The notes under the pieces are model-generated. The model saw nothing but the letters and a program-made list of their open reading frames with translations. It was not told the origin of the DNA and searched no databases. A program made the position numbers and the translations under genes. Below, in pieces: positions 48,481 to 61,316 of a stretch of 64,000 bases of DNA; within the stretch, counting starts at the first letter, position 1, and every line of letters begins with the position of its first letter. The DNA comes from an uncultured Gammaproteobacteria bacterium (lineage in GTDB: Bacteria > Patescibacteriota > Microgenomatia > 2-02-FULL-39-11): assembly GCA_964362665.1 (NCBI GenBank), contig CAYIFB010000004.1, positions 13,349 to 77,348 on the forward strand. The letters are read 5' to 3'.

Positions 48481-48505
48481 CCCCGCCTTTGGCGGGGTTT
48501 TTCTT
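48481..48505. terminator. Bidirectional intrinsic terminator
   Basis: CCCCGCC-TTT-GGCGGGG followed by TTTTTCTT; an A/T-rich run lies on the other side. Confidence 0.75.
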
Positions 48506-48524
48506 GGGATAACTAAAAAAAATT

Positions 48525-49154
48525 TCATCTTTTAGTAGCCACAATTTTATTGACAATGTTGAAGGGGCCGAAATCAGTTCTTCTCACCTCAAAACCGGCA
48601 GATTGAAAATACTGCATATTATTTCTTTGCAGATGTAATGTAGTGTGCGGAGAAACTAAGCGAAATAAAATTCTTGCAATAAGATTATTATTCTGAGGAA
48701 TGCCGCCTGCAATAATTATAACTTTTCCGTTTTTCTTCAAAACCCTTTTCATCTCTAAAATTGCTTTTTCGAGGTGAGTTATTTCCGCCAGGACGAATGT
48801 CAGTACTATGCAATCAAACACTTCATTGTCAAAAGGTAGTTTTTCCACGCTCTGCTGTAGGATTGGAGGAGTAAATCCCGCTTTTTTTAATCTTCGTTTG
48901 GCTTCATAAGCCATACCGCGGCGAAGCTCGATACCTGTAATATCACATCCCTTCTGAACCAGCTTTAGCAACAGTTTACCGGGCCCCACTCCTATTTCCA
49001 GAATTTTATTTCCTGAAATGTCTTCAAATACCCGCTGTTGCCACTGCTCCCATTGACCGAAAGATAAAAGCTGAGTCAAATTGGAATAAATTAGAGGCCA
49101 CGCGTGGTAAGCTTTGTAGAAGAAATCGAATAATTTTATTTTAGAGAGTCGCAT
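48525..49154 (-). CDS. Class I SAM-dependent methyltransferase (Methyltransf_11-like)
   Basis: Motif I ILEIGVGPG; acidic residue in GIEL; motif III. Confidence 0.65.
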   Translation of the reverse strand: MRLSKIKLFDFFYKAYHAWPLIYSNLTQLLSFGQWEQWQQRVFEDISGNKILEIGVGPGKLLLKLVQKGCDITGIELRRGMAYEAKRRLKKAGFTPPILQQSVEKLPFDNEVFDCIVLTFVLAEITHLEKAILEMKRVLKKNGKVIIIAGGIPQNNNLIARILFRLVSPHTTLHLQRNNMQYFQSAGFEVRRTDFGPFNIVNKIVATKR

Positions 49155-49186
49155 ATAAAGCGGCTACAAGATATTGTAACACACGA

Positions 49187-49215
49187 TTGACAATAAATTC
49201 AATTAAAGATAAAAT
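49187..49215 (+). promoter_or_regulatory. Sigma70-like promoter of the leu operon leader
   Basis: TTGACA (49187-49192), 17-nt spacer, TAAAAT (49210-49215). The predicted transcription start site is about 5 nt before the leader ATG. Confidence 0.55.
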
Positions 49216-49227
49216 AATTCCAGAATC

Positions 49228-49281
49228 ATGAGAAGCAACTCTCTCTTAAATCTCGCTCTTCTCCTCCTTGGAGAGGTGTAA
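49228..49281 (+). CDS. Leu-rich leader peptide (MRSNSLLNLALLLLGEV)
   Basis: 17 codons, 7 of them Leu including a run of four (CTT CTC CTC CTT). It lies between the promoter and the attenuator hairpin. Confidence 0.55.
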   Translation: MRSNSLLNLALLLLGEV

Positions 49282-49324
49282 GCGTGGTTTGAGAGGGTAA
49301 GTTCTCATTTTTTAATAAATCTAA

Positions 49325-49351
49325 ATCTCTCTCAAACGAGAGATTTTTTTT
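49325..49351 (+). terminator. Attenuator terminator directly preceding the leuA start codon
   Basis: ATCTCTC-tcaaac-GAGAGAT hairpin plus T8 ending at 49351; leuA ATG is at 49352. Upstream GGAGAGG (49270-76) and GAGAGGG (49291-97) can pair alternatively with the CTCTCTC arm. Confidence 0.6.
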
Positions 49352-50536
49352 ATGCAACAAAAAATACACATCTTTGATACAACACTTCGGGATGGCGAAC
49401 AATCACCCGGAGCAAAACTTAATACTGACCAAAAAGTTGATCTAGCCAAACAGCTTGAAAAACTGGGTGTGGATGTGATTGAAGCCGGTTTTCCTATTTC
49501 ATCACCCGGTGATTTCAAATCTGTAGAAAAAGTGGCAAAAACAATAAAAAACTGCACTGTTTGTGGTCTTACACGCGCTCTAAAACGGGATATCGATTGT
49601 GCTTATGATGCTATAAAACACGCTAAATACCCTAGAATTCACACAGGTATCGGGGCATCGGACATTCATATAAAATATAAATTTAATTCCACCCGGGAAA
49701 AAATCTTAAAACAGGCTATAGAAGCTGTGAAATACGCCAAAAAATATGTTGACGATGTTGAGTTTTATGCCGAAGACGCAGGACGAGCTGATAATAAATT
49801 TCTGGTCTTAATGATTACTGAAGCAATTAAAGCAGGTGCAACTGTGGTCAATATTCCAGATACTACGGGTTACTGTTTACCGGAAGACTGGGGAGTAAAA
49901 ATAAAATATTTATATGAAAATGTCGCCAATATCCACAAAGCTCGTGTCTCCGTACATTGTCATGATGATCTTGGTATGGCAACTGCAAATACAATCTCCG
50001 GGGTGATAAACGGAGCCAGACAAGCGGAGGTTACCATTAATGGAATTGGTGAACGGGCCGGTAACACTTCGTTGGAGGAAGTTGTCATGGCAATCCATAC
50101 CTATAGAAATTCTTTACCATTTTATACAAAGATTAATACTCATGAGCTTTATAAAACCAGCCGGATGGTCTCGGAAATCATGGGAATTCCGGTACAACCA
50201 AATAAAGCAATCGTTGGAGTAAATGCCTTTGCCCATTCGTCAGGAATTCATCAGGATGGGATAATCAAAAGACGGGAAAATTACGAAATAATAGATCCGA
50301 AAATTATCGGGTTGGATTCATCTAAAATTGTTTTGACAGCCAGAAGCGGACGAGCTGCGCTTAGGCATAAGTTAAAAAATTTAGGGATTGATTTAACAAA
50401 GGATAAATTGGATATCTTTTATAAAGAATTTTTAAATTTCGCCGATCTGAAAAAAGAAATTCATGATGATGATTTGAAAGTTTTAATTAAAATCAGCAAT
50501 GATCAAACCTTAAAAAATAAATATTCCTCTATATGA
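49352..50536 (+). CDS. leuA: 2-isopropylmalate synthase/citramalate synthase family, short form lacking the C-terminal allosteric domain
   Basis: LRDGEQ and [13 protein letters not shown] blocks. At 394 aa it stops before the LeuA_dimer regulatory region. Followed by leuCDB. Confidence 0.8.
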
Positions 50537-51933
50537 AACCCAAGACGCTATTTGAAAAAATTTTGGGTTCTCATAGAGTATCTCTCAATCTGAATTCTCC
50601 GTCATTAATTTATATTGATATCCATTATCTTCATGAAGTGACATCTCCTCAAGCTTTTTATAATTTGAGGAAGAAAAAATTAAAAGTTCGCCGCCCTGAA
50701 AGAACTTTTGCTACTTGCGACCATAATGTTTCTACAACTAATCAATTTGAAATTAAGGATAAATTGTCGAATATTCAAATCAAGACTTTAAAAAAAAATT
50801 GCCGTGATTTTGGAATAAAACTTTACGGTTTGAATAATCCCAATCAGGGGATCGTTCATGTCATCGGGCCGGAGCTTGGAATTACCCAACCCGGTCAGAC
50901 CATAGTCTGTGGCGACTCTCATACCTCAACACACGGTGCCTTTGGCGCTCTGGCGTTCGGGATTGGCACAACTGAAATCGAACACGTTTTAACGACAAGC
51001 TGTTTGGTACAAAACCCGATGAAAACGATGCAAATTAAAATTACAGGAAATTTAAATAAAGGCGTCACGGCAAAGGATGTAATTCTGACAATACTGACAA
51101 AAATCGGGACTAAGGGCGGTTCCGGGTTTGCCATAGAATACTGCGGATCTTTAATCAATAAACTGAATATGGAAGAAAGAATGACAATCTGCAATATGAG
51201 TATTGAAGCGGGAGCCAGATGTGGAATTATAGCTCCTGACCGGAAAACTTTTGCCTATTTAAAGGGCAGATTATTTGTGCCAACAGGAAAAAAATGGAAT
51301 GAAGCTCTAAATTATTGGCAGACTTTAAAAACCGACAGAAATGCACACTTCGATAAATCAATTAATATTGATGCAAATAAAATAGAACCATTGGTCACCT
51401 GGGGTACTGATCCGTCAACAGGAATTAAAATAACACAAAAAATTCCGTCTCCCGAAACAGCGCAATCTCCTGAGGAAAAAATGTCACAGAAAAAAGCGCT
51501 ATCTTATATGAATTTGAAACCCGGCATGTCTCTTGAAGGTTTTTCTATTGATTATGTCTTTATTGGAAGTTGTACTAACGCCAGAATTTCAGATCTGAGA
51601 CAGGCTGCAATAATTGTGAAAGGAAAAAAAGTATCGGGAAGTGTAGTTGCTCTAGTCGTCCCCGGATCAAAACAGGTAAAGCTTCAGGCAGAAAAAGAAG
51701 GTTTGGATAAAATTTTTAGAGACGCAGGCTTTCAGTGGCGTTTCTCAGGATGTTCTGCCTGTATCGCCATGAATGAAGATAAAATTCCATCTGGAAAATA
51801 TTGTGTTTCTACCAGTAACCGTAATTATGAAGGCAGACAAGGCCCAGGTGCACGCACATTCTTGACAAGTCCTATCATGGCAGCTGCGGCAGCTATAGAA
51901 GGAAAAATTACTGACGTAAGAAAATTTTTATGA
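50533..51933 (+). CDS. leuC: 3-isopropylmalate dehydratase large subunit
   Basis: Aconitase-family blocks [24 protein letters not shown] and Fe-S Cys ligands. Confidence 0.9.
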
Positions 51934-52529
51934 AACATTTCATAAATATTATGTCAAATTGTATAACTATTCCGGAAGAGAATATTGATACCGACCAGAT
52001 CATCCCTGCTCAATTTTTAAAAACCACAAAAAAAGATGGCCTAGGTAAATATCTTTTTTATAATTGGCGTTTTGATAAGTTTGGTAAAACAAAGAAAAAT
52101 AATCGGTTCGACTATTCGAATCACCATATCAATAAAATATTAATTGCAGGAAATAATTTTGGTTGCGGATCAAGCCGTGAACATGCTGTCTGGGCTCTTA
52201 CCGACTTTGGATTTAAAGTTATCATCTCTTCATCTTTTGGAGATATTTTTTACACCAACTCTTTCAAAAACGGTCTGTTGTTGATTATAATCAAAAAAAA
52301 TGAAGTAGAAAAACTTTTTACGGCTGTTGAAAATCCCAAAACAAAAATAATTATAGATTTGGAAAAACAAACAATCGTCATTCCCTCAAAAAGTATTTTA
52401 ATCTCATTCCAAATCGACGAGTTTAAAAAAAATAATTTATTAAATGGTGCTGATGAGCTAGAATTCATCCTCTCACAGGAGAAAAAAATAGCAGAGTTTG
52501 AGAAAAAACATAAATTATATTTAATATGA
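51930..52529 (+). CDS. leuD: 3-isopropylmalate dehydratase small subunit
   Basis: NIDTDQIIPAQFLK swivel-domain pattern; 4-bp overlap with leuC. Confidence 0.85.
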   Translation: MKHFINIMSNCITIPEENIDTDQIIPAQFLKTTKKDGLGKYLFYNWRFDKFGKTKKNNRFDYSNHHINKILIAGNNFGCGSSREHAVWALTDFGFKVIISSSFGDIFYTNSFKNGLLLIIIKKNEVEKLFTAVENPKTKIIIDLEKQTIVIPSKSILISFQIDEFKKNNLLNGADELEFILSQEKKIAEFEKKHKLYLI

Positions 52530-53608
52530 ATAAAACTATCGCTATATTACCAGGTGACGGAATTGGCCCGGAAGTGGTCGAACAGGGTGTAAAAGTCTTA
52601 AAAGCGATAGCTTCTAAATTCCATCATCAGTTTATTTTTAAATTCGGTTTAATCGGCGCTGAAGCGATTGAAAAAACCGGTGTTCCTCTACCTGATAATA
52701 CTTTAAGTTTGTGTAGAGAATCTGATGCGGTACTCTTTGGCGCCATAGGAGATCCGAAATTTGACTTAGATCCAAAAGCTAAAGTCAGACCGGAACAGGG
52801 ACTCCTGAAACTGCGTCAATCATTAAAACTTTTTACGAATCTTCGACCTGTCAAACTTTATCAGGATTTAATAAATATTTCTCCACTCAAGAAAGAGAAA
52901 TTAAAAAATGTTGATTTAATGATTGTCAGAGAATTAACCGGCGGAATTTATTTTGGAGAGCCAAGACTTCGAAAAAATAATGGGAAAACAGCTGTGGACA
53001 CTTCAATATATTCCGTAGATGAAATTACCAGAGTTGCCAAGATTGCGTTTGAAATGGCATTAATAAGAAGAGGTAAAGTTACCTCTGTTGATAAAGCCAA
53101 TGTCTTGGAGACTTCCCGACTCTGGCGGGAAACTGTCACGGAAATTTCGAAGAATTATCCATCTGTCGAATTAAATCATATGTTTGTTGATAACGCTTCA
53201 ATGCAACTTATTAAAAATCCGTCTCAATTTGATGTTATTCTGACCGAAAATATGTTCGGTGATATTTTATCGGATGAAGCTTCGGTTTTAGCCGGATCAA
53301 TTGGACTACTCCCTTCAGCATCAATCGGTGAAAAAAATGCCTTATATGAACCGATTCATGGAGCGTTTAACAAGGCAAAGGGTAAAAATATAGCCAATCC
53401 GATCGGGTCGATATTATCCATCGCCATGATGTTGGAATTTTCCTTTAACCTTACTGAAGAAGCGCAATTAATTGAAAAAGCGATAAAAAAAACATTTTCT
53501 GAAGGATATAGAACTTCCGACCTAATTGATGTAAATACTCCTCAAAAAAAAATCTTAGGAACAAAAGAATTTACTGATTTGGTGGTAAAAAGTATCGATG
53601 AAAGTTAA
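52526..53608 (+). CDS. leuB: 3-isopropylmalate dehydrogenase
   Basis: NMFGDILSDEASVLAGSIGLLPSAS signature. Confidence 0.9.
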   Translation: MNKTIAILPGDGIGPEVVEQGVKVLKAIASKFHHQFIFKFGLIGAEAIEKTGVPLPDNTLSLCRESDAVLFGAIGDPKFDLDPKAKVRPEQGLLKLRQSLKLFTNLRPVKLYQDLINISPLKKEKLKNVDLMIVRELTGGIYFGEPRLRKNNGKTAVDTSIYSVDEITRVAKIAFEMALIRRGKVTSVDKANVLETSRLWRETVTEISKNYPSVELNHMFVDNASMQLIKNPSQFDVILTENMFGDILSDEASVLAGSIGLLPSASIGEKNALYEPIHGAFNKAKGKNIANPIGSILSIAMMLEFSFNLTEEAQLIEKAIKKTFSEGYRTSDLIDVNTPQKKILGTKEFTDLVVKSIDES

Positions 53609-54556: not shown

Positions 54557-54973
54557 TTAACAGCAGGAACATTTCCCGCCACAATTTTCTTCGTTTCCTA
54601 AAACAGCAAGACATTCAATTTCCACCAGCGCATCTTGGGGTAAACGAGCCGCTTCTATAGTCGCCCGGGCCGGATACGGCTTTTGAAAATAAGTTGCATA
54701 CACCTCGTTCATTTGAGAAAAATCAGAAACATTTTTAAGATAAACCGTGGTTTTGACAACATCAGAAAAATCAGCTCCGGCAGATGAAAGAACGGCTTTC
54801 AGGTTTTCCAAAACCTGCTTTGTTTGCGCTGCAACTCCGCCTTCAACAAATTGATTTGTTTTTGGATCTTTCCCAACTTGCCCTGAACAAAAAATAAAAT
54901 TATTGATTACTACAGCTTGAGAATAAGGGCCTATAGCTCCCGGAGCCTTTTTGGTTTCAATTGCTTTTTTCAT
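54557..54973 (-). CDS. ridA: RidA/YjgF enamine/imine deaminase with unusual Cys-rich C-terminal tail
   Basis: RidA blocks (GPYSQAV, ARATIEAARLP, EIECLAV) plus an extra GNEENCGGKCSCC at the C-terminus. Confidence 0.8.
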   Translation of the reverse strand: MKKAIETKKAPGAIGPYSQAVVINNFIFCSGQVGKDPKTNQFVEGGVAAQTKQVLENLKAVLSSAGADFSDVVKTTVYLKNVSDFSQMNEVYATYFQKPYPARATIEAARLPQDALVEIECLAVLGNEENCGGKCSCC

Positions 54974-56838
54974 TCCTTATTTTTTCCCCCTTTTTTCAAT
55001 CTTTGATAAACTAATTCATTATAACCTTTTTCAAAAGCCTCAACAGCTGCAACGATTATATCAGGAGACGTCCCTTTTTCAACAACTTGCGTACCATACT
55101 CATCTTTTAATACCATCGTCGCTTCGACTGTAGCATCCGAACCAGTAGTTGGAATTTCCACCTGAAAATCAGTAAGTCTGAATTGTGTTTTGTCTTCCTT
55201 TTTAATGGCTGAAGTTATTGAATTTATGGCCGCATCCACCGGCCCGACTCCTTCCTGACTTATGTTGTAGTGATGGCCGTTCAATAATACTTTTACTTGT
55301 GCGACTGGCTTTTTTTTCTTGAATGTTTCGATATGAAAATCTTCCACCTCCAGAGTTTTTTTCCGCCTTTCATCCTGAATAACTGTTTCGATGATAGACT
55401 GCAGATCGGCTTTGGCAATCGATTTTCCTTTCACCTTGATAAATTTCTCGACAACATTTCGAACAATATTTACTGTTGCTTCATCCAAATCCATCTTAAA
55501 CTCTTTTTTAATTGATTCTTTTGCCTGGTTAAAATTTGGCACTGTGGTAAAAATATTTTTCTCTTTCTCCGCTGCGCCTGCCGCACGCAAAGTAAGTATT
55601 CCAGTTTTTAACACCCGATCCACTTCAGTAATGATTGGTTCAATTGTTGGAGGCTCTGCCAACACTTTCAGGGTCGTTGATGGATCTTTGAGTCCGGCAC
55701 CTGTTGCTACGCAAATTATCACTTCATCCTTTTTAAGGATTTTTCGTTTTATTAATTTTGATAAAGCTGCAATGACGGTTGCTGATGACGGCTCCACGTA
55801 CAATCCTTCCATTCTTGCCAAGGTTTGTTGAGAATGAAGCGTTTCATCATCCGTTACACTAACTGCCGCACCTTTTGAGTCTTTTAATGCTGCCATAACT
55901 TTCGGAGCATCAATTGAAATACCGCTGCAGGCAATAGCCGAACAAATAGTTTGTGCTTTATCAAGCGGCTTAACCGTGCTTTGAGTTTCATACGCGGTAA
56001 CAATAGGTGAAGCACCCTCCGCCTGTACAGCTATAATTCTAGGTAATTTTTTGATGAGTCCGAGTTCATAATATTCTTTAAACCCTTTCCAAATGTAGGA
56101 AAGGTTAGTTCCCATACCAACCGGCACTAAAACCCAATCGATTGTTTCAAACCGCAATTGTTCACAAACTTCGAAGGCGAGTGACTTTTGACCTTCTCCA
56201 CGAAATGCATAATCACCGGCTAAATAAAATCCGTATTTTTCAGAAACCTTCACACACAATCCGAAAGCGTCAGTATATGTACCCCGTACTTGTATAACAT
56301 GGGCACCATATGAAAGAGCTTGAGCAAGCTTTCCTTTCGGAGTATTTTCCGGAACCAAGACGTAACAAATCATACCAATCTGTCCCGCATACGCGGCAAC
56401 TGAAGCGGCCATGTTACCTGTTGAGGCTACACAAACAGTTTTATATCCCAGTTCTTTTGCTTTATGAAGCTCTACAAAACTTCCGCGATCTTTAAATGCC
56501 CCTGTTGGATTCATGCCTTCATTTTTTATATAAAGTCTGTTCAGATTTAATTTTTTTCCTAAATTTTGCGCATGATGAAGCGGGGTATTTCCTTCGCCTA
56601 AAGTTTTTAAATTTTGCCGATTTAAAAGCGGATAAAAATCCAGATATTTTAAGACTGATGGAGGTGCAGTTTGCATAAGGTATGAATTCATTTGATTTTT
56701 TAGCATTTCATAGTCATACACGACATCGAGCGGTCCGCCGCAGAATTCGCAGACCGTACAGTTTTGCCGTTCATCTGTTCTTTTTTTGCAAACAAAGCAG
56801 TGCAAATAATAAAAACAATTACTGGTGTGATTCATCAT
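54970..56838 (-). CDS. Fusion protein: N-terminal zinc ribbon, fold-type II PLP enzyme (threonine synthase-like), C-terminal LeuA-type allosteric/dimerisation domain
   Basis: Cys ribbon CxxC...CxxC at the N-terminus. PLP-lysine block NPTGAFKDRGS matches the ThrC 'PTxSFKDRG'. The C-terminal ~180 aa carry GVGPVDAAINSI and TTGSDATVEATMVL...GTSPDIIVAAVEAFEKGYN, typical of the LeuA_dimer regulatory domain. It sits in the ilvBN-x-ridA-ilvE operon. Confidence 0.6.
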   Translation of the reverse strand: MMNHTSNCFYYLHCFVCKKRTDERQNCTVCEFCGGPLDVVYDYEMLKNQMNSYLMQTAPPSVLKYLDFYPLLNRQNLKTLGEGNTPLHHAQNLGKKLNLNRLYIKNEGMNPTGAFKDRGSFVELHKAKELGYKTVCVASTGNMAASVAAYAGQIGMICYVLVPENTPKGKLAQALSYGAHVIQVRGTYTDAFGLCVKVSEKYGFYLAGDYAFRGEGQKSLAFEVCEQLRFETIDWVLVPVGMGTNLSYIWKGFKEYYELGLIKKLPRIIAVQAEGASPIVTAYETQSTVKPLDKAQTICSAIACSGISIDAPKVMAALKDSKGAAVSVTDDETLHSQQTLARMEGLYVEPSSATVIAALSKLIKRKILKKDEVIICVATGAGLKDPSTTLKVLAEPPTIEPIITEVDRVLKTGILTLRAAGAAEKEKNIFTTVPNFNQAKESIKKEFKMDLDEATVNIVRNVVEKFIKVKGKSIAKADLQSIIETVIQDERRKKTLEVEDFHIETFKKKKPVAQVKVLLNGHHYNISQEGVGPVDAAINSITSAIKKEDKTQFRLTDFQVEIPTTGSDATVEATMVLKDEYGTQVVEKGTSPDIIVAAVEAFEKGYNELVYQRLKKGGKNKE

Positions 56839-59053: not shown

Positions 59054-59084
59054 AAAAAAACCTCTCATTTTGAGAGGCTTTTTC
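59054..59084 (-). terminator. Terminator-like hairpin immediately upstream of the ilvB ribosome-binding site (candidate attenuator)
   Basis: On the minus strand, CCUCUCA-aaa-UGAGAGG followed by U7, then AAGGAG and the ilvB ATG 22 nt later. Confidence 0.45.
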
Positions 59085-59120
59085 TAATTTTTAATTTCTA
59101 ATTTTTAATTTCTAATTAAT
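59083..59120. repeat. 14-bp AT-rich tandem repeat, 2.7 copies (TCTAATTTTTAATT)
   Basis: Direct sequence inspection. It lies between the upstream gene stop (59220) and the ilvB leader hairpin. Confidence 0.7.
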
Positions 59121-59219
59121 TCCTCCCAAGCAAATCCCTGTCCTTTGACAAGGATAATAATCGAGAGAATAATGATAGATGCACCTGTTTGAATCAACAC
59201 AATGGTCTAATATACCAAA

Positions 59220-61316
59220 CTAAACTTTTAAAGTCAACATGAAACTCTTAACTTTAGTCCATTGTTCACCGGCATTAAGATATAAATAATCGAGAAGTTG
59301 CATTGGATTGAGAAGACATTTTTTTATTTCCTTCTTGCAGTCTGTAATGAATTTGATAGGAATATTTTTTGCAATATCAACTCCATCTGCCGTGATGGAA
59401 ATAGTGGTTGATAACGGAATATTTGAGGTAATATCAACAAACCAAGGTTTAATCCTGTATGAATAATCCGACGGCATTTGCACCTTCAAATCTGAAAGGT
59501 GATCACCTGTAACTTGGATATTTTGTACTGATGTAGGTCGGCCTAACTTATTTAACGGTAGAATAAAAAGCCTCAAGGGATTTCTACCGGCAACGGCAGT
59601 TTTATTATTCCAGTAAAATATGGAGTGGTCGGAATCCACTTTCAGACCGGATTTATCCGGCTGAAACACAGGATTAAGTTTTTGGAGTTTCGTAATATTT
59701 TCAATTGGCGTTAAATATATTGAATTCTCATCTTGGGAAAAAGTAAAAAATGGTGTGAATTCTTCTTCAACTCTCCAACCTGCTAACAGCATATTCTTTT
59801 CGGGTTTAAAGAATAAATCAAATTGATTGGGAAAACTTATAACTTGTGGCATATCTGATGAAAACAAATTATTCAGAACCATATCTTTTGAATTCGTGAA
59901 TTTCGCCTGAAGATTTTTACTCAAAATTATTTTCGCCGGTTGCAAGATAATAGAATTATTTTGTTTGTCTCTAAAAGTTATTACTACCTCACTCGTTTTA
60001 TCATCTAAATCGAAATCTCCCTGACCAATTTCAATTCCAAAAGAACTTGTCTCTATATCCGACTTATTTTCACTGATAAAGTTTTTTGTATTTTTAAAAT
60101 TTGTTTTTACTGAAGTAGCAAACGTTTTCGAGCCGTCAATTAAATAAGGAACCGTCCAATATGAATAATCTGCACTCGCAGGCTCCTTATAATACGGATC
60201 CTCTATCGGGGTAAATACTCTCAAATCATCCAAAATTAATTTTTTGTTTTTTAATAATATCCGGGCGCGGTAATTTTTCCCGAAATACCAGAGTACTCCA
60301 ATTTTACTTTTATCATTGAAATCTTTCTTCAGAAAAAACGGCGGATTTCCCGCGTATTTATTTTGAAAAGTTTCAGCATAATCAGAAGGCGAAATTACTT
60401 TTAACTTTCCACTTTTAACTAAATCCGAGAGATATTCCAACTGCCTCAAGTATTCCTGTCCGTATTTATCCCAAGGGTATGAGTTTTCAAAACCCAAAAC
60501 TCCAAAGCGGAATTCTGACGGTTGACTGACCGCGTCATCCACTAATGACTTAAAATAAGTGATGTCCTTTTTTTGAGGATTTTCCAAATAGTCGTTGGGC
60601 TGGGAAGTGAAGTATGATTTGGGAGATCCGTAATTGTGCAGGAGATCGCTTACCGTCTGGCGAATCATGACAATTCCTAATTTATCGCCGAAATTGCCCG
60701 GGATTAAGGGGTGATTTAAAGCCGGGTAATAGGGAGCATTGAATATTCCTCCCTCCAGAGAATAAGAATCGGTTTCATACTGCTCTTTGGTCAATTCATG
60801 CAAAATGACCCCGTATTGGTCATGAATATATTTTAAAGACCAGCTGTCGATCATCCAGGCAGAAGTATATGAGGGAAAATAGCCAAACTTTGCTTTAAAT
60901 TTGCCAAAAGCCGTATCGATCAGCTTCTTGCGATCTTCTTGTGAATAACCCAGTAGCATGGAATTTTTCGCGAAGAACCAATCTGTACTTTGAGAATTTA
61001 AAGATCCACTGTATTTCACCTTTGCCTCAATTGCTAATCGTGGTGTAATTTCCAAAAGTAACCCCGGATCTTTGATTTTTTTTATTTTGTCAAAGATTAC
61101 AGGATCATCAAAGACGTCGTAACGGATAGTCCAACCCATCGGTAGTGTTTGAAGTTTTTCAGATTCTAAAACTTCATCAATAAGCTCCTCGCTCCCTTTA
61201 TCACAGCAATTTTCGTTTCCCCTAATTTGGTTAATAATTAAAAAATTTGCCTCACTGGCATATACAGGTTTAATCGTGCTAATTAAAAGCACAAGAAATA
61301 CAAAGAAATACATCAT
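59220..61316 (-). CDS. Large secreted hypothetical protein (698 aa)
   Basis: N-terminal signal peptide; no recognised catalytic motif. Confidence 0.45.
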   Translation of the reverse strand: MMYFFVFLVLLISTIKPVYASEANFLIINQIRGNENCCDKGSEELIDEVLESEKLQTLPMGWTIRYDVFDDPVIFDKIKKIKDPGLLLEITPRLAIEAKVKYSGSLNSQSTDWFFAKNSMLLGYSQEDRKKLIDTAFGKFKAKFGYFPSYTSAWMIDSWSLKYIHDQYGVILHELTKEQYETDSYSLEGGIFNAPYYPALNHPLIPGNFGDKLGIVMIRQTVSDLLHNYGSPKSYFTSQPNDYLENPQKKDITYFKSLVDDAVSQPSEFRFGVLGFENSYPWDKYGQEYLRQLEYLSDLVKSGKLKVISPSDYAETFQNKYAGNPPFFLKKDFNDKSKIGVLWYFGKNYRARILLKNKKLILDDLRVFTPIEDPYYKEPASADYSYWTVPYLIDGSKTFATSVKTNFKNTKNFISENKSDIETSSFGIEIGQGDFDLDDKTSEVVITFRDKQNNSIILQPAKIILSKNLQAKFTNSKDMVLNNLFSSDMPQVISFPNQFDLFFKPEKNMLLAGWRVEEEFTPFFTFSQDENSIYLTPIENITKLQKLNPVFQPDKSGLKVDSDHSIFYWNNKTAVAGRNPLRLFILPLNKLGRPTSVQNIQVTGDHLSDLKVQMPSDYSYRIKPWFVDITSNIPLSTTISITADGVDIAKNIPIKFITDCKKEIKKCLLNPMQLLDYLYLNAGEQWTKVKSFMLTLKV

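Follow-up and report, generated by a model that had tools for sequence, protein, structure and literature searches.

The region examined here lies within a stretch of 64,000 nucleotides from contig CAYIFB010000004.1 (hereafter the 64-kb window), in which a leucine operon, leuA–leuC–leuD–leuB, occupies positions 49352–53608 of the forward strand and is preceded by a leader (49187–49351) with a promoter, a short open reading frame (ORF) rich in Leu codons and a terminator. The four genes (leuA, 49352–50536; leuC, 50533–51933; leuD, 51930–52529; leuB, 52526–53608; all +) have overlapping starts and stops, and each of them matched an NCBIfam equivalog or subfamily model above cut-off. The gene upstream of the leader, encoding a methyltransferase, is divergent. 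Judged from sequence, the window is from a Gottesmanbacteria-like bacterium belonging to the Candidate Phyla Radiation (CPR; Patescibacteria, Microgenomates group). An identical LeuA protein was found on Hainich groundwater metagenome contigs, and the nearest GTDB species by LeuA is Candidatus Gottesmanbacteria RIFCSPHIGHO2_02_FULL_40_13, at 89% identity. An earlier sequence-only reading of the stretch had proposed a Leu-codon attenuator in front of leuA, and this proposal gained support from an exceptional RNA fold, mutually exclusive pairings, a fitting geometry and conservation. The leader very probably acts as a ribosome-mediated leader-peptide transcription attenuator, setting the expression of leuA–leuC–leuD–leuB by the supply of charged tRNA-Leu. 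Its parts, their exclusive pairings, the relative stabilities of these and their conservation are established by sequence, folding and comparison.

The promoter is composed of a −35 hexamer TTGACA (49187–49192, +), a 17-nt spacer and a −10 hexamer TAAAAT (49210–49215, +), which together match 11 of the 12 sigma-70 consensus positions, as expected from the near-consensus promoter described earlier at this position. The pattern TTGACA-N16-18-TANAAT occurs twice in the window against an expectation of 0.41, and the TTGACA hexamer is identical throughout 10 aligned relatives. Transcription would probably start around 49222–49223, which would give a 5′ untranslated region (UTR) of approximately 5–6 nt without a Shine-Dalgarno (SD) sequence. 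The leader ATG (49228) lies twelve bases past the −10 box, and in 15 CPR loci the corresponding distance is 6–13 nt (by eye for L169 and L176; L numbers denote the loci compared), with no SD in any of them. Because of this short distance, the leader mRNA can be regarded as leaderless or nearly so. By a crude count, SD-like 4-mers precede just 12 of the 49 long ORFs of the window, and several actinobacterial leader-peptide transcripts are known to be leaderless. The divergent methyltransferase gene has a promoter-like site (49173–49202, −; TTGAAT-18-TACAAT, extended TG) that overlaps the leu leader promoter (49187–49215, +) back to back.

The leuL-like leader ORF (49228–49281, +) runs from the ATG at 49228 to a TAA at 49279–49281 and encodes MRSNSLLNLALLLLGEV, in which seven of 17 codons are Leu, four of them in succession (CTT CTC CTC CTT, 49258–49269, +). 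This is the ORF that had been pointed out previously, and an ATG ORF with a run of at least four Leu codons arose in just 0.1% of dinucleotide shuffles of the leader stretch. The leader peptides of the window and of its relative L163 are identical despite two synonymous nucleotide changes; the leader ATG is invariant, and Leu enrichment is confined to frame 0. From the codon usage across loci, the run CUU CUC CUC CUU is proposed to be the stalling (sensor) site: such runs consist of CUY codons in 15 of 15 tabulated loci, save for one CUG closing the run in L169, and in the ORFs of the window the most frequent Leu codon is UUA (29%), with CUC accounting for just 7.6%. The almost exclusive use of CUY suggests that a single tRNA-Leu species may be monitored. 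No tRNA genes are present within the window. The Leu run of the Gottesmanbacteria group, CUUCUCC, is complementary to a downstream GGAGAGG, so that the codons of the run are also constrained by RNA pairing.

The RNA spanning 49222–49352 folds at −49.9 kcal/mol (z = −6.7), which was equalled by 0 of 200 shuffles. In the minimum-free-energy fold, a long 1:2 hairpin (−38.7 kcal/mol) is formed by region 1 (49241–49264, +), a 5′ arm of Leu codons inside the leader ORF (Leu codons 6–13), and region 2 (49270–49297, +), a 3′ arm reading GGAGAGG…GGUUUGAGAGGG. Region 3 (49323–49337, +) comprises the terminator 5′ arm (49323–49331) and loop (49332–49337), and region 4 (49338–49351, +) the terminator 3′ arm (49338–49346), overlapped by a U8 tract (49344–49351). 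The terminator, AAAUCUCUC/UCAAAC/GAGAGAUUU (49323–49346), follows the leader ORF and precedes the first structural gene, and since only three of its nine pairs are G-C and its stability is −9.9 kcal/mol, it is moderate and not the strong hairpin that was first described. The U8 tract was confirmed, but the single nucleotide thought to separate it from leuA was not; its last U (49351) directly touches the ATG at 49352–49354.

An antiterminator of 11 bp is formed when the 3′ part of region 2, GGUUUGAGAGG (49287–49297), pairs with UCUCUCUCAAAC (49327–49337) in region 3, at −14.3 kcal/mol, which blocks the distal part of the terminator arm and its whole loop. The 2:3 duplex of the window ranged from −14.3 to −15.3 kcal/mol, and 0 of 200 shuffles were as good. 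The antiterminator is more stable than the terminator, and it is mutually exclusive both with the terminator 3:4 and with the hairpin 1:2. The sequence-only reading had likewise foreseen a pairing with the terminator 5′ arm, though through purine-rich segments including GGAGAGG, which is not the conserved partner. GGAGAGG (49270–49276) was considered as an antiterminator strand and rejected: although able to pair with UCUCUC, it is already taken up by pairing with the Leu codons, and a ribosome stalled on the run would cover it or have it at its margin. A small hairpin, UGAGAG/UUCUCA followed by U6 (49291–49313, +; approximately −5.6 kcal/mol), is specific to the window and absent from the relatives compared, and may serve as a pause or decoy element. 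This element (hairpin 49291–49307 and U6) and an outer helix AUGAGAA/UUCUCAU were each considered as parts of the conserved mechanism and set aside, as both are found in the window only and the outer helix is 41% paired across relatives.

The geometry of the leader fits a ribosome-operated switch. The Leu codons span 49243–49269, inside region 1 and the hairpin loop, and the stop codon (49279–49281) lies 5 nt ahead of the antiterminator strand of region 2, a placement that would let a terminating ribosome mask this region. Ribosome positions were modelled by placing the A site on a chosen codon and folding just the RNA on the 3′ side of the ribosome. When any of Leu codons 11–14 occupied the A site, the RNA made up to the end of region 3 formed the 2:3 helix. 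When the stop codon occupied it, this helix could not form (−4.4) and the terminator did.

In the proposed mechanism, a ribosome would translate the 17-codon ORF of the near-leaderless mRNA as RNA polymerase advances. When leucine is plentiful, the ribosome would reach the UAA and its footprint would cover the start of region 2 (49287 onward); with region 2 masked, region 3 would pair with region 4, and the hairpin and U8 tract would stop transcription just ahead of the leuA AUG. When Leu-tRNA reading CUY codons is scarce, the ribosome would stall on the Leu codons, notably those at 49258–49269, and keep region 1 apart, and the freed GGUUUGAGAGG would pair with UCUCUCUCAAAC once the latter has emerged. 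The terminator 5′ arm and loop would then be sequestered, leading to read-through into leuA. In an RNA that is not translated, the very stable 1:2 hairpin and the terminator would both form, giving basal attenuation.

Conservation of the Leu-rich mini-ORF upstream of leuA, which had been left to be looked for, was found among 183 loci that were collected by LeuA scans of genomes and metagenomes and by exact-protein look-ups. The scan of JGI metagenomes yielded few close relatives, and most CPR loci came from the look-ups. A Leu-run mini-ORF, a terminator and a matching antiterminator were present ahead of the leu operon in 16 CPR loci independent of one another (the window, L163, L003, L164, L165, L167, L083/L174, L004, L169, L176, L005, L009, L081, L085, L171 from Roizmanbacteria and L173 from Dojkabacteria). 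The leader peptides of the CPR loci are 16–29 residues long and contain 3–9 Leu, as in MNRLTLSNLDLLLLGEDL, MIWQALLNQLNLLLLKV, MVLQIDNQSLALLLSAGFRR and MKKTTSNNTGLLLNPKT. In 15 of 15 tested loci, the duplex of regions 2 and 3 (−13 to −22 kcal/mol) was stronger than the terminator (−9.5 to −19.8 kcal/mol) and beat at least 98% of shuffles. Every locus has a hairpin followed by 6–8 U, and in every locus the stop codon is located inside, just ahead of or shortly past region 2. Moreover, the two strands of the antiterminator are swapped together between groups, with AUCUCUC terminators paired with GGUUUGAGAG, CCCGCC terminators paired with AGGCGGUGAGA, AAGGCGGGGA or GGUGGGG (a GGCGG-type region 2) and a CCUCCCG terminator paired with CGGGAGG.

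Within the Gottesmanbacteria group, GGTTTGAGAG in region 2 is invariant except for one A-to-G change in L169. In an alignment of ten Gottesmanbacteria-type sequences, the lower helix of the 1:2 hairpin was 96% paired and the upper helix 84%, the terminator helix was 91% paired with two pairs changed on both sides, and the antiterminator was 90% paired compared to 34–75% for slid registers. When a covariance model was built from 10 loci, it detected in L005 a member on which it had not been trained, with 91.7 bits and an E-value of 1e-12.

The comparative data effectively refute, and thereby make extremely improbable, the simplest alternative, namely that an ORF arisen by chance lies beside a hairpin serving divergent genes as an ordinary terminator or insulator, and has no regulatory role. 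Short ORFs and hairpins flanked by A and T are indeed common in AT-rich intergenic DNA, and the hairpin looks bidirectional. However, no gene ends at the hairpin on either strand, since the methyltransferase upstream is divergent, and neither the rarity of the Leu-run ORF in shuffles nor that of the antiterminator would be expected by chance, nor would the retention of the whole module in 16 loci from several CPR lineages.

A further possibility is that the mini-ORF is not translated and that the hairpins bind a protein or uncharged tRNA, in a T-box-like or LEU-element-like manner, with the Leu codons arising as a by-product of a CU-rich strand pairing with a GA-rich strand. The complementarity of CUUCUCC and GGAGAGG in the Gottesmanbacteria group, which shows that pairing constrains the sequence, and the missing SD would both suit such an arrangement, for which leader ORFs of Streptomyces whose codons did not matter are a precedent (PMC1262725). 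It is nevertheless considered very improbable, as the ATG is invariant and sits 6–13 nt from the −10 hexamer, the Leu-enriched frame is conserved and the stops fall consistently at region 2. Lineages with unrelated stems (L009, L081, L085, L171 and L173) also keep in-frame CUY Leu runs, the corresponding ORF of the ilv operon (see below) is rich in Ile instead of Leu, and neither the T-box nor any other Rfam family matches.

In this genome alone, the terminator abuts the leuA AUG. A spacer of 110–160 nt is present between the attenuator and leuA in six close relatives (L003, 2361–2494; L163, 1043–1181; L164, 1385–1500; L165, 1386–1500; L167, 1343–1500; L083, 1365–1500). It folds very stably, at −38 to −70 kcal/mol, with a conserved basal stem and variable inserts, and neither an Rfam match nor a further copy of it was found among the sequences searched. 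In L003, the spacer carries a clear AGGAGG SD ahead of leuA. The spacer may constitute a second regulatory layer, and the window has apparently lost it through a deletion that set the terminator on the leuA ATG. Three ORFs, encoding a DUF2000 protein, a protein with a YbaK/ProX-type tRNA_edit domain and a cupin, are located between the Leu attenuator and leuA in L169 (76–1501; Gottesmanbacteria RIFCSPHIGHO2_02_FULL_39_14), and a single ORF of no assigned function occupies the same place in L005 and L176.

This arrangement bears on whether control could be mainly translational, with translation of the leader or stalling on it altering access to the leuA initiation region and termination being secondary. 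In the window, leuA has no SD, the U8 tract ends where the AUG begins and 5 nt separate the hairpin from the AUG, so that a 3:4 helix, on forming again, would encroach on the site where the 30S subunit binds; the hairpins of L009, L081 and L085 are also 10–14 nt from the AUG. In the actinobacterial LEU element, moreover, the ribosome binding site of leuA is paired with Leu codons (PMC1262725). Still, mainly translational control appears unlikely, as a canonical hairpin with 6–8 U, the signature of intrinsic termination, is found at every locus, and the adjacency to the leuA AUG is not conserved, since spacers (in L003 with its own AGGAGG) or, in L169, L176 and L005, other ORFs intervene.

A second attenuator, rich in Ile codons, precedes the operon ilvB–ilvN–(ThrC-like/LeuA_dimer)–ridA–ilvE on the reverse strand (59054–59237), as judged from its promoter, ORF, fold and conservation. 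Its promoter consists of TTGACT (59237–59232), 17 nt and TATATT (59214–59209), and a GTG at 59200 starts 8 nt later, so that this leader is also near-leaderless. The ORF ends with a TAA at 59105 and encodes (M)LIQTGASIIILSIIILVKGQGFAWEELIRN with seven Ile (…SIIILSIIILV…). Similarly to the leu leader, the Ile and Leu codons form the 5′ arm of a 1:2 hairpin, UUGGGAGG (59128–59121) can pair with the terminator arm CCUCUCAA (59076–59069) as an antiterminator, and a terminator (59084–59054, −17 kcal/mol) lies ahead of ilvB, which in this case has an SD. The leader folds at −44.3 kcal/mol (z −4.5), leader and terminator are kept in the relative L177, and the leu covariance model matches the ilv element weakly (33.6 bits, E-value 0.015). 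That Leu codons precede leu and Ile codons precede ilv is the match of amino acids to be expected if leader-peptide attenuators are genuine.

LeuA of the window is a short form of 394 aa, which aligns to positions 4–387 only of the 516-position isopropylmalate synthase model and lacks the PF08502 domain; the sequence-only reading was right that the allosteric domain is missing. From this together with the leader, it had suggested that the pathway is controlled mainly by attenuation instead of enzyme feedback, which is not supported as a rule. The same attenuator precedes long-form LeuA with the regulatory domain in L004 (499 aa) and L005 (503 aa); a general tie between attenuator and missing allosteric domain was therefore rejected, and attenuation can thus not be seen as a specific substitute for lost feedback. 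In addition, a protein carrying a LeuA_dimer domain, of the allosteric kind, is encoded 5 kb away.

This fusion protein of 622 aa (54970–56838, −), encoded within the ilvB–ilvN–[fusion]–ridA–ilvE operon, has a ThrC-like pyridoxal phosphate domain (PF00291; TIGR00260 thrC above cut-off) and, at its C-terminus, a LeuA_dimer domain (PF08502, residues 474–609). Its family, of approximately 617 aa, is widespread in Gottesmanbacteria, other Patescibacteria and NC10, and is annotated merely as threonine synthase. One could speculate that the fusion provides a feedback-regulated source of 2-oxobutanoate for isoleucine synthesis.

CPR LeuA proteins are 61–69% identical to those of Bacteroidota (window 49352–50536, loci L004–L162), and both short (approximately 385–395 aa) and long (approximately 497–503 aa) forms are present in both CPR and Bacteroidota. 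These sequence relationships suggest that leu genes may have been transferred between phyla and that the regulatory domain may have been lost repeatedly. That the leader is specific for Leu favours an annotation of the short LeuA, despite its missing domain, as a genuine enzyme of the leucine pathway.

No relevant Rfam family matched, whether in the leader region at E-values up to 10, in the window as a whole at gathering thresholds or in 13 relatives. Leu_leader (RF00512) gave no match at E-values up to 10 in 48500–50000, none at the gathering threshold across the window and none in the 13 relatives, and the T-box model matched neither the leader region, the window nor these relatives. Phe_leader (RF01859) reached 22.8 bits against a gathering score of 55, with a match covering the terminator hairpin only, and the element does not belong to this family. 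In its anatomy and logic, the element nonetheless resembles the leu attenuator (leuL) of Escherichia coli and Salmonella, with a promoter-proximal ORF containing four successive Leu codons, a terminator before leuA and regions 1–4 with exclusive 1:2, 2:3 and 3:4 pairings. It differs from the enterobacterial attenuator in the length of the leader (17 codons, compared to 28 in E. coli), in the use of CUY instead of CUA/CUC codons, in having no sequence or covariance-model similarity, no SD, a 5′ UTR of only around 5 nt and a terminator abutting the leuA AUG, and in its CPR host.

Analogous Leu/Ile-rich leaders with terminator and antiterminator were found before leuA in many Bacteroidota loci (L087, L146, L023, L029, L132, L057 and others), and the amino-acid operons of Flavobacterium psychrophilum have been described as showing "strong clues" of such attenuation (PMC9723704). 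Bacteroidota loci also hold the closest LeuA outside CPR. As in the window, the stop of the Bacteroidota mini-ORF lies at region 2, which is complementary to the terminator 5′ arm; elements of both groups carry the motif UCUCAAAC at the junction of arm and loop, and the CPR covariance model matches Bacteroidota elements weakly at the right place (E-values 0.007–0.6). Unlike those of CPR, however, the Bacteroidota elements have TAnnTTTG promoters and leaders mixing Ile and Leu, and their region 2 (UGAGAAUGG) has the entire arm (CCAUUCUCA) as its partner, whereas that of CPR pairs with arm and loop. Common descent or co-transfer of the CPR and Bacteroidota elements, as opposed to convergence, is possible but unproven from these sequences. 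In several Cytophagales and Bacteroidales loci (L063, L069, L072, L073, L075, L078, L026, L028 and L030), an apparently conserved mini-ORF (…WTGC…GGSLSEM…) approximately 100–350 nt upstream of leuA was discarded as an artefact, since it is an out-of-frame reading of the ilvC 3′ end; there, leuA simply follows ilvC in an ilv–leu operon.

Leader peptides have also been described upstream of leuA, ilvB and trpE in actinobacteria (Corynebacterium, Streptomyces and Mycobacterium), with Leu-run mini-ORFs before leuA and Ile/Val/Leu mini-ORFs and terminators before ilvB, much as here (PMC1262725; PMC3890552). The actinobacterial LEU element has no terminator, and its Leu codons pair with the leuA SD in a pseudoknot (PMC1262725). 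The present element is not a member of this class: its Leu run pairs with GGAGAGG within the leader, leuA has no SD, and a complete terminator/antiterminator pair is present. The leucine-rich attenuator peptide of the Staphylococcus aureus ilv–leu operon (PMC5794164) and the leu/phe leader of Lactococcus (RF01743) are, like the element described here, cases of leader-peptide attenuation of branched-chain operons outside Proteobacteria, but they depend on an SD and are unrelated to it in sequence, consistent with the lack of Rfam matches. The T-box of ilv–leu operons in Bacillus and other Firmicutes similarly senses tRNA-Leu charging and chooses between terminator and antiterminator, but binds uncharged tRNA directly and needs no ORF, whereas the element of the window is ORF-based.

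Several points weigh against attenuation as proposed. The terminator is modest, as noted above. At equilibrium, the hairpin 49291–49307 together with the terminator (−15.9) slightly beats the antiterminator state (−14.3), and for this reason the switch must be kinetic, as it also is in known attenuators. Furthermore, when folds are left unconstrained and the ribosome stalls on the last Leu codons, the RNA behind the ribosome re-pairs with region 2; such re-pairing would probably be hindered by the ribosome itself, and we discount it on steric grounds alone. As the leader ORF has no SD, the model requires leaderless or near-leaderless initiation. Within the alignment of ten sequences, no antiterminator pair is altered on both sides, because region 2 is nearly invariant, and the argument from covariation therefore rests on the helix swaps between groups. 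Comparable leader peptides predicted for Streptomyces leuA and ilvB did not, when mutated, act like classical attenuators (PMC1262725). Finally, for this uncultivated organism we infer the transcription start, the translation of the mini-ORF, the stalling and the response to leucine in vivo.

The mechanism itself is textbook, and the novelty lies in the CPR host, the leaderless mini-ORF and the companion ilv attenuator. CPR bacteria are uncultivated organisms with reduced genomes, and amino-acid biosynthesis is usually said to be missing from them; no report of leader-peptide attenuation in CPR/Patescibacteria was found in the searched literature. A broader, tentative scenario is that such attenuation, with close coupling of transcription and translation, might be conserved in Microgenomates-type CPR for both leu and ilv through leaderless mini-ORFs monitoring the CUY-reading tRNA-Leu, that the leu operon and its attenuator may have been exchanged with Bacteroidota, and that the deletion in the present genome could have put terminator and U tract on the SD-less leuA start, where one switch would gate both transcription and translation initiation. 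We regard this wider picture as possible, though doubtful as a whole.

Since the covariance model recognises further members, it can be used to annotate such elements in CPR genomes. The attenuation model implies that CPR ribosomes would trail RNA polymerase closely enough for attenuation, and that regulatory mini-ORFs would be initiated on leaderless or near-leaderless mRNA. The conserved Leu and Ile attenuators suggest that Gottesmanbacteria-like organisms make branched-chain amino acids, and that this synthesis is tuned to tRNA charging.

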